Assembly: GCF_003334765.1 (NCBI RefSeq) | Contig: NZ_QOWT01000056.1 | Reading direction: 5' to 3' (one strand) | Source of the DNA: Escherichia coli | GTDB lineage: Bacteria; Pseudomonadota; Gammaproteobacteria; Enterobacterales; Enterobacteriaceae | DNA: 11,286 nt | Position numbers and translations under genes: made by a program | Shown here: positions 2,171 to 2,221 of the stretch, one piece after another | Layout: the number at the start of each line of letters is the position of its first letter | Position numbering within the stretch: position 1 is the first letter of the stretch | The notes under the pieces: model-generated | Told to the model about the DNA's origin: nothing | The model's database searches: none | What the model saw: only the letters and a program-made list of their open reading frames with translations

Positions 2171-2182
2171 CTAAACCTTCAT

Positions 2183-2202
2183 GCGGCGGATTTTTCCGCC
2201 GC
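2183..2202 (+). terminator. Intercistronic hairpin between ydeN and ydeM (possible partial terminator or mRNA-stabilising stem-loop)
   Basis: Perfect 8-bp stem GCGGCGGA (2183-2190) / TCCGCCGC (2195-2202) with a TTTT loop. The downstream U-tract is weak (CTTATTG), so full termination is doubtful. It sits 13 nt after the ydeN stop and 20 nt before the ydeM ATG. Confidence 0.3.
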
Positions 2203-2221
2203 CTTATTGAGCGAGATAGCG

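Follow-up and report, generated by a model that had tools for sequence, protein, structure and literature searches.

Genes and signals around the ydeN-ydeM junction

The DNA analysed here, a stretch of 11,286 nt that is called the window throughout, matches the ydeN-ydeM-yddA-yddB-pqqL region of Escherichia coli K-12. It corresponds to the reverse strand of strain MG1655 and differs from it at only five positions from about position 100 onward, K-12 coordinates being obtained as 1583012 minus the window coordinate. Positions 1-100 are out of register with MG1655, while the remaining 11.2 kb carry just these five differences; an indel at the end of ydeO is probably behind the unaligned first ~100 nt. 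Two neighbouring genes of the plus strand are in the focus of this analysis. The upstream one, ydeN (488-2170; b1498 in RefSeq, also recovered in the ORF list and by tblastn), codes for a putative periplasmic sulfatase of 560 amino acids and ends with the stop codon UAA at 2168-2170. The downstream one, ydeM (2222-3379; b1497 in RefSeq, confirmed by tblastn), codes for a radical-SAM anaerobic sulfatase-maturating enzyme of 385 amino acids. Its start is the ATG at 2222, and tblastn alignments run from residue 1 in the Enterobacterales orthologues (loci L002-L007 and L012). Between both reading frames lies a gap of 51 nt (2171-2221), and it is this gap that is described below.

According to the literature ydeN and ydeM are co-transcribed and repressed by AraC, which binds upstream of ydeN. 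In a consensus scan the promoter-like site CTTACA-18-TAAAAT was found upstream of ydeN at 421-450 on the plus strand, and this is the only plus-strand match between the start of the window and position 2818. This means that ydeM is without an obvious promoter of its own. Further upstream, at 134-156, the hairpin GGGGCAG/CTGCCCC followed by GCGTTGTTTTT was returned on both strands in the terminator scan; it is probably the terminator of the preceding ydeO unit and lies before the promoter region of ydeN. At the other end of the operon, beyond the stop codon of ydeM (3379), the antisense small ORF yneP (K-12 coordinates 1579545-1579667) contains a further perfect 8-bp hairpin, whose arms are ACCCGACA and TGTCGGGT (3434-3457). 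The pair yneP-ydeM was described as a convergent excludon (PMC12288877), and a Rho-termination region with its peak at K-12 position 1579674, i.e. window position 3338 near the 3' end of ydeM, was reported by Adams et al. 2021.

The junction between both genes was found on plasmid-typed records in 8 of about 5340 matches. Insertion sequences have reached its surroundings in a few strains. In E. coli ETEC1722 (locus L023) and in strain 74-2 (hit H1) an IS2 element has replaced the terminal part of ydeN immediately before the hairpin, with both the hairpin and ydeM left intact, and in another strain an IS1 element is located within the 601-nt region around the junction.

The intercistronic hairpin in E. 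coli and its relatives

Beginning 12 nt past the ydeN stop codon, the gap contains an inverted repeat on the transcribed strand. The 5' arm GCGGCGGA (2183-2190) and the 3' arm UCCGCCGC (2195-2202) form a perfect 8-bp stem with seven G-C pairs, and a UUUU tetraloop (2191-2194), whose first base is polymorphic (T>A), closes it. Both arms were assigned from the sequence, from folding and from covariation. The sequence thereby confirms the 8-bp stem with a 4-nt loop that a preliminary description had placed in the 51-bp gap, and the calculation of folding free energy which was proposed there came out in favour of a real structure: the gap folds with -18.7 kcal/mol (z = -3.06), a value reached by 1 of 200 dinucleotide shuffles, the isolated 20-mer hairpin has -16.2 kcal/mol, and the helix is retained in a folding context of 151 nt. 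In its dimensions the stem-loop falls into the range of intrinsic terminators, for which a G+C-rich stem of about 5-14 bp and a loop of 3-8 nt on the transcribed strand are typical. At the gathering threshold no Rfam covariance model matched anywhere in the whole window.

Across the 11,286 nt no other perfect hairpin combines 8 or more base pairs with 6 or more G-C pairs. From dinucleotide shuffles 0.07 such hairpins are expected per window, or about 2e-4 per gap of 51 nt. If G+C content is disregarded, the whole window contains eight perfect hairpins of at least 8 bp compared with 1.3 expected from shuffles. Six of the eight are intergenic (259-305, 3434-3587 and 10949-10969), and the other two are the ydeN-ydeM stem and one at 4291-4311 inside yddA.

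Orthologous loci were collected from a scan of species-representative genomes and from a look-up of contigs encoding YdeN homologues that were found by protein search. At all of these loci but one the sulfatase gene is followed by a radical-SAM maturase gene on the same strand, the exception being a second type of E. coli sulfatase that has no maturase. This one (P0066, from the E. coli locus L027, Logan ERR10711952) is 77% identical to YdeN, is encoded beside a porin gene and is followed by its own 11-bp hairpin (CAGGGAGTAGA/TCTACTCCCTG) with no maturase gene downstream.

A stable hairpin is present at the corresponding position in every sulfatase-maturase gap of beta- and gamma-Proteobacteria that was examined (16 lineages). 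These gaps come from E. albertii, Leminorella, Mixta, Cedecea, Citrobacter, two Salmonella types, Yersinia enterocolitica, Y. pestis and Proteus, from a multi-species Enterobacterales type, from Aeromonas/Shewanella and the beta-proteobacterium Iodobacter, as well as from Grimontia, Psychromonas and two metagenomic contigs. Most of the orthologous gaps are 42-69 nt long, and among the 15 shorter gaps the z values against dinucleotide shuffles are mostly between -2.3 and -5.3, with -1.4 and -1.8 as the weakest. In a plain MAFFT alignment of 18 gaps, made with no structural input, both arms line up, and RNAalifold recovered from it the same helix with compensatory changes in all seven of its pairs. 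For a user-specified extended helix of nine pairs, 91.4% of the cells can pair and each of the nine pairs is changed on both sides. The corresponding covariation score is 0.569, to be compared with 0.300 in shuffled alignments (none of 500 reached the observed value) and with 0.07-0.20 if the partners are slid against each other.

These data also bear on the question of whether the repeat acts in RNA or in DNA. A DNA-level palindrome, either the operator of a binding protein or a remnant of the REP/BIME type, would account for the perfect 8-4-8 inverted repeat, and two 8-mers (ATGCGGCG and CGCCTTAT) are indeed in common with the REPs of the malE-malF gap. Against such an element, the sequences of the arms vary while their complementarity stays. 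Moreover, G.U pairs outnumber A.C pairs in the helix by 7 to 2, i.e. G.U is tolerated only on the sense strand, which argues for an RNA helix on that strand instead of a palindrome in DNA. A REP/BIME repeat was also rejected as a candidate in its own right, since the 57-nt gap region occurs at one place per genome and the local alignment to the malE-malF REPs scores 16, which lies within the shuffles (mean 13.9, 95th percentile 18). A mere chance repeat is excluded by the expectation of 0.07 per window together with the conservation. Selection acts on the stem as an RNA structure of the sense strand, and we regard a DNA-level origin as highly improbable. A second rejected candidate, judged by eye, was binding of the CsrA type to a GGA in the loop: in E. 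coli the GGA sits at the top of the stem and it is missing from several orthologues.

Within the species the structure is preserved as well. Four haplotypes of the 57-nt region account for nearly all E. coli records (5316 of 5341), and the stem is intact in each of the four. Of the three variant sites one is in the loop (2191, T>A in 1631 of 5341 records), and the other two precede the stem. Common polymorphisms spare the stem, an observation that, with only three variable sites, is descriptive and carries no significance value. The loop variant of E. coli B type was also met in locus L002 (JARKOR010000108.1), which is filed as a metagenome-assembled genome of 'Candidatus Nanosynbacter'; the proteins encoded there are 100% (YdeN) and 99% (YdeM) identical to those of E. 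coli, and this is almost certainly a mis-binned E. coli contig.

Elsewhere the junction looks different. Three loci of Anaerobiospirillum (L009, L010 and L016) have gaps of 248-519 nt with terminator-like hairpins followed by U-tracts, and three loci of Fusobacterium (L013-L015) have a gap of about 30 nt with a strong GGAGG and no hairpin. The long gaps in the one genus and the short, hairpin-free gaps in the other mean that the design of the junction differs by clade.

Tail of the stem, mapped 3' end and message levels

The eight nucleotides that follow the stem of E. coli, CUUAUUGA (2203-2210, plus strand), form a degenerate U-tract with four interrupted U. In the simple terminator scan, which demands at least 5 U in 8 nt, the ydeN-ydeM site is absent from the output. 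A score of the d'Aubenton-Carafa type is below the threshold too (nT 1.53, d about -11), this value being no more than a relative guide, as modern energies were combined with the original coefficients. The E. coli site thus falls short of the U-tract of an intrinsic terminator, canonically a U-rich stretch of 7-9 nt, and the earlier remark that no convincing U-tract is present is borne out by both scan and score.

The family as a whole gives a different picture. Over 16 lineages the 8 nt past the helix consist of T to 57%, compared with 25% in the rest of the gaps (P = 5e-15, a nominal value as the lineages are not independent), and the consensus of the tail reads C-UU-(A/U)(A/U)-UUU. Canonical tracts with positive scores are found in Y. 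enterocolitica (U6), in contig P0029 (U7), in Leminorella (U5) and in Grimontia (U6), and about a third of the orthologues have canonical terminators with U5-U7 at the same place. The tract is poor in E. coli, E. albertii, Y. pestis, Aeromonas, Iodobacter and the second Salmonella type. Since the stem is retained in several of these (Aeromonas, Iodobacter, Y. pestis and the second Salmonella type) where hardly any U-tract is left, it may be the stem and not termination that is the conserved requirement.

For MG1655 a transcript 3' end is already on record at this place. The 3'-end map in supplementary file 4 of PMC10687069, based on TRS datasets (RNAtag-seq/term-seq, LB/EG medium), lists a minus-strand terminus at K-12 positions 1580801-1580810 with the peak at 1580802. 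In the window this corresponds to 2202-2211 with the peak at 2210, which is 8 nt past the last stem base (2202) and within the distance of about 7-9 nt downstream of the stem at which terminators produce RNA 3' ends in vivo. The placement is sound because the neighbouring entries for gadB and gadC agree with the coordinates of NC_000913.3. The terminus has R-bar = 1 and a corrected p = 0 in all three replicates, R-bar being L/(L+D), so that a value of 1 stands for no read starts within 67 nt downstream (PMC10687069). In the same table it is classified for ydeN as 'Alternative primary in TU', i.e. located after a gene that is not the last one of its operon. Transcripts ending near 2205, which had been suggested as the decisive observation, are therefore present as the published cluster at 2202-2211.

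In other resources the site is less visible. The Term-seq data of Adams et al. 2021 contain no curated dominant 3' end in the gap, either in LB or in M63; this absence is weak evidence because the read counts over ydeNM are low there (about 30 per 800 nt). The TERMITe Term-seq resource has no entry for the ydeN-ydeM gap, and the supplements of papers on acid-stress ribosome profiling and on fnr/azo dyes hold nothing relevant on ydeN, ydeM or these coordinates.

The map does not separate termination from trimming, because 3' exonucleases also stall 8 nt past a stem. The main rival explanation takes the hairpin as a pure mRNA stabiliser or processing barrier: polymerases would read through, the transcript would be cut downstream, for instance in the poorly translated leader or body of ydeM, and 3' exonucleases would trim it until they stall a few nucleotides 3' of the stem, so that the ydeN part of the message would be stable and the ydeM part unstable. 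Such stalling could also produce the end mapped 8 nt past the stem. The explanation also fits well with a stem that is kept everywhere while the U-tract is weak or absent in the six groups named above, with the failure of the E. coli site as a terminator by the usual criteria and with the weak ribosome-binding site (RBS) of ydeM. What it does not require is the strong T enrichment of the family tail, which would be needless for a pure exonuclease barrier. That roughly a third of the orthologues have a canonical terminator in this position speaks against it as well, and the complete lack of read starts in the 67 nt downstream looks more like termination. We consider a pure stabiliser as possible though rather unlikely, and the 3' end appears to arise from termination rather than from trimming. 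Terminator and stabiliser models are not exclusive.

A drop in message level across the junction was seen in RNA-seq of bacteria from the mouse gut. In the derepressed strain BW25113 delta-gatC/araC/malI the mean normalised counts are 5399.1 for ydeN and 371.5 for ydeM, and in the delta-gatC control they are 92.3 and 21.7, respectively. Under derepression this makes a ratio of 14.5-fold as given, which shrinks to about 10-fold per nucleotide should the values lack length normalisation; a single in-vivo study is its source. Part of it could be due to a faster decay of ydeM, which is poorly translated, or to Rho-dependent polarity within this gene. Two other transcriptome papers have ydeN but not ydeM among their top changes, and this is weak evidence consistent with the same pattern of ydeN over ydeM. 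As expected for the cistron behind an attenuating terminator, ydeM is co-regulated with ydeN, has the lower mRNA level and is, by the consensus scan, without an evident promoter of its own. The preliminary description had supposed that some of the transcripts are terminated or protected by the hairpin, with more sulfatase than maturase as the outcome. An excess of ydeN message is evident from these counts, and the supposition as a whole holds up against the covariation, the U-rich tail of the family, the 3' end at 2210 and the RNA-seq values.

It had further been proposed that the hairpin occludes the ribosome-binding region of ydeM and that this region is weak. The second part proved correct, as the best pairing with the anti-Shine-Dalgarno sequence is offered by UGAGCGAGA (2208-2216, plus strand), which forms a bulged duplex of only -5.3 kcal/mol. 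Orthologues have AGAGA, AGGA or GAGG at this position, placed after the tail and followed by ATG. A role in translation, in which the hairpin would occlude or crowd the RBS or would protect the 5' end of a processed ydeM mRNA, gains some plausibility from this weakness and from the spacing. The stem of E. coli ends 19 nt before the AUG, i.e. at the 5' edge of the 30S footprint, and the distance from stem to start codon is constrained, being about 9-23 nt in the aligned short-gap orthologues (40 nt in Psychromonas). Occlusion is nevertheless not supported, because the Shine-Dalgarno-like bases (2208-2216) and the AUG (2222) both lie outside the helix and their predicted accessibility is unchanged by disruption of the stem. 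In partition-function calculations with the 3' arm intact or scrambled, the unpaired probability is 0.48 or 0.50 for the Shine-Dalgarno-like stretch and 0.83 or 0.84 for the AUG, and the tail is even predicted to become less accessible if the stem is lost. Translational control would also leave both the mapped 3' end and the drop in mRNA level unexplained, and we rate it as distinctly improbable.

Interpretation and relation to known systems

Taken together, we favour, with a probability of roughly 0.65, a leaky Rho-independent terminator that doubles as a 3' stabiliser, so that mainly ydeN-only mRNA is formed and ydeM is reached by read-through. RNA polymerase would copy the G+C-rich 8-bp stem, and the hairpin would fold while the weak RNA:DNA hybrid of the tail is still in the enzyme. 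Most complexes would then drop their RNA about 8 nt past the stem, and the released ydeN RNA, carrying the hairpin at its 3' end, would be shielded from 3' exonucleases. A minority of polymerases would read through and yield the ydeN-ydeM transcript as the only evident source of ydeM, which is suggested by the consensus scan since no promoter-like site precedes this gene. From such a transcript ydeM would be translated by means of its accessible but weak RBS. The expected outcome is far more message for the sulfatase than for the maturase, as would suit an enzyme needed in stoichiometric amounts and a maturase that is catalytic and rich in iron-sulfur clusters. Keeping the dose of the maturase below that of its substrate enzyme may be the purpose of the element.

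A variant of the terminator reading assumes that the extent of read-through is set conditionally, for instance by a factor, by anaerobiosis or by the state of translation at the stop codon of ydeN, which precedes the hairpin by 12 nt, so that the hairpin would be a regulatory module borne by the sulfatase-maturase cassette. It could be so because the core GGC(A/G)G...C(U/C)GCC is recognisable from Iodobacter to E. coli and persists even where the U-tract was lost. If this were true the maturase would be tuned to the sulfatase load. We see this variant as improbable.

A leaky terminator with stabilising function would explain how a two-gene operon can give different doses of its products, namely of a stoichiometric periplasmic enzyme and of a catalytic, oxygen-sensitive radical-SAM maturase. 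The 20-nt stem-loop and compensatory mutants of it provide a handle on the AraC-repressed and gut-induced ydeNM operon. Furthermore, the site can be considered as a natural example of an apparently efficient hairpin that forms 3' ends with a poor U-tract, and it should be useful to calibrate terminator predictors. In the literature searched no paper was found that discusses the ydeN-ydeM hairpin, and its terminus figures only as a single row of a genome-wide table. The element does not stand for a mechanism of a new class.

Partial Rho-independent terminators inside operons are known from E. coli, e.g. the attenuator of rplKAJL-rpoBC and the terminator between rpsU-dnaG and rpoD. With these systems the ydeN-ydeM element shares a G+C-rich stem-loop between co-transcribed genes with U-rich sequence behind it, an RNA end at a defined position about 8 nt past the stem, and read-through that sustains a reduced expression of the downstream gene. 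In contrast with them its U-tract in E. coli is degenerate and termination is the probable, not the established, cause of the 3' end. Its distribution differs too, as the module is conserved together with the sulfatase-maturase cassette, which is patchy across beta- and gamma-Proteobacteria. Canonical intrinsic terminators mapped by Term-seq, SEnd-seq or TRS resemble it in stem length, loop size and the distance from stem to 3' end, and the R-bar of 1 is that of strong terminators in the TRS table such as those of sra and gadC. Unlike canonical primary terminators the site is internal to an operon, with 12 nt separating it from the preceding gene and 19 nt from the following one, and its U-tract falls short of the usual limits.

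The second group of related elements are the intercistronic hairpins that stabilise mRNA, namely the REP sequences in malE-malF and hisJ-hisQ and the pufA-pufL hairpins of Rhodobacter capsulatus. There, too, a stable stem-loop is found at the 3' end of the upstream and more abundant segment, and an exported or structural component is made in excess over its downstream partners. The ydeN-ydeM hairpin differs from REPs in being present in single copy and in having no significant similarity to those of malE-malF. It also consists of one short 8-bp stem in place of long or multiple ones, and its dependence on exonucleases is putative. By analogy with both groups, the hairpin between ydeN and ydeM would appear to work like the operon-internal terminators and stabiliser hairpins of E. 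coli and Rhodobacter, and to be an element of an ordinary kind.
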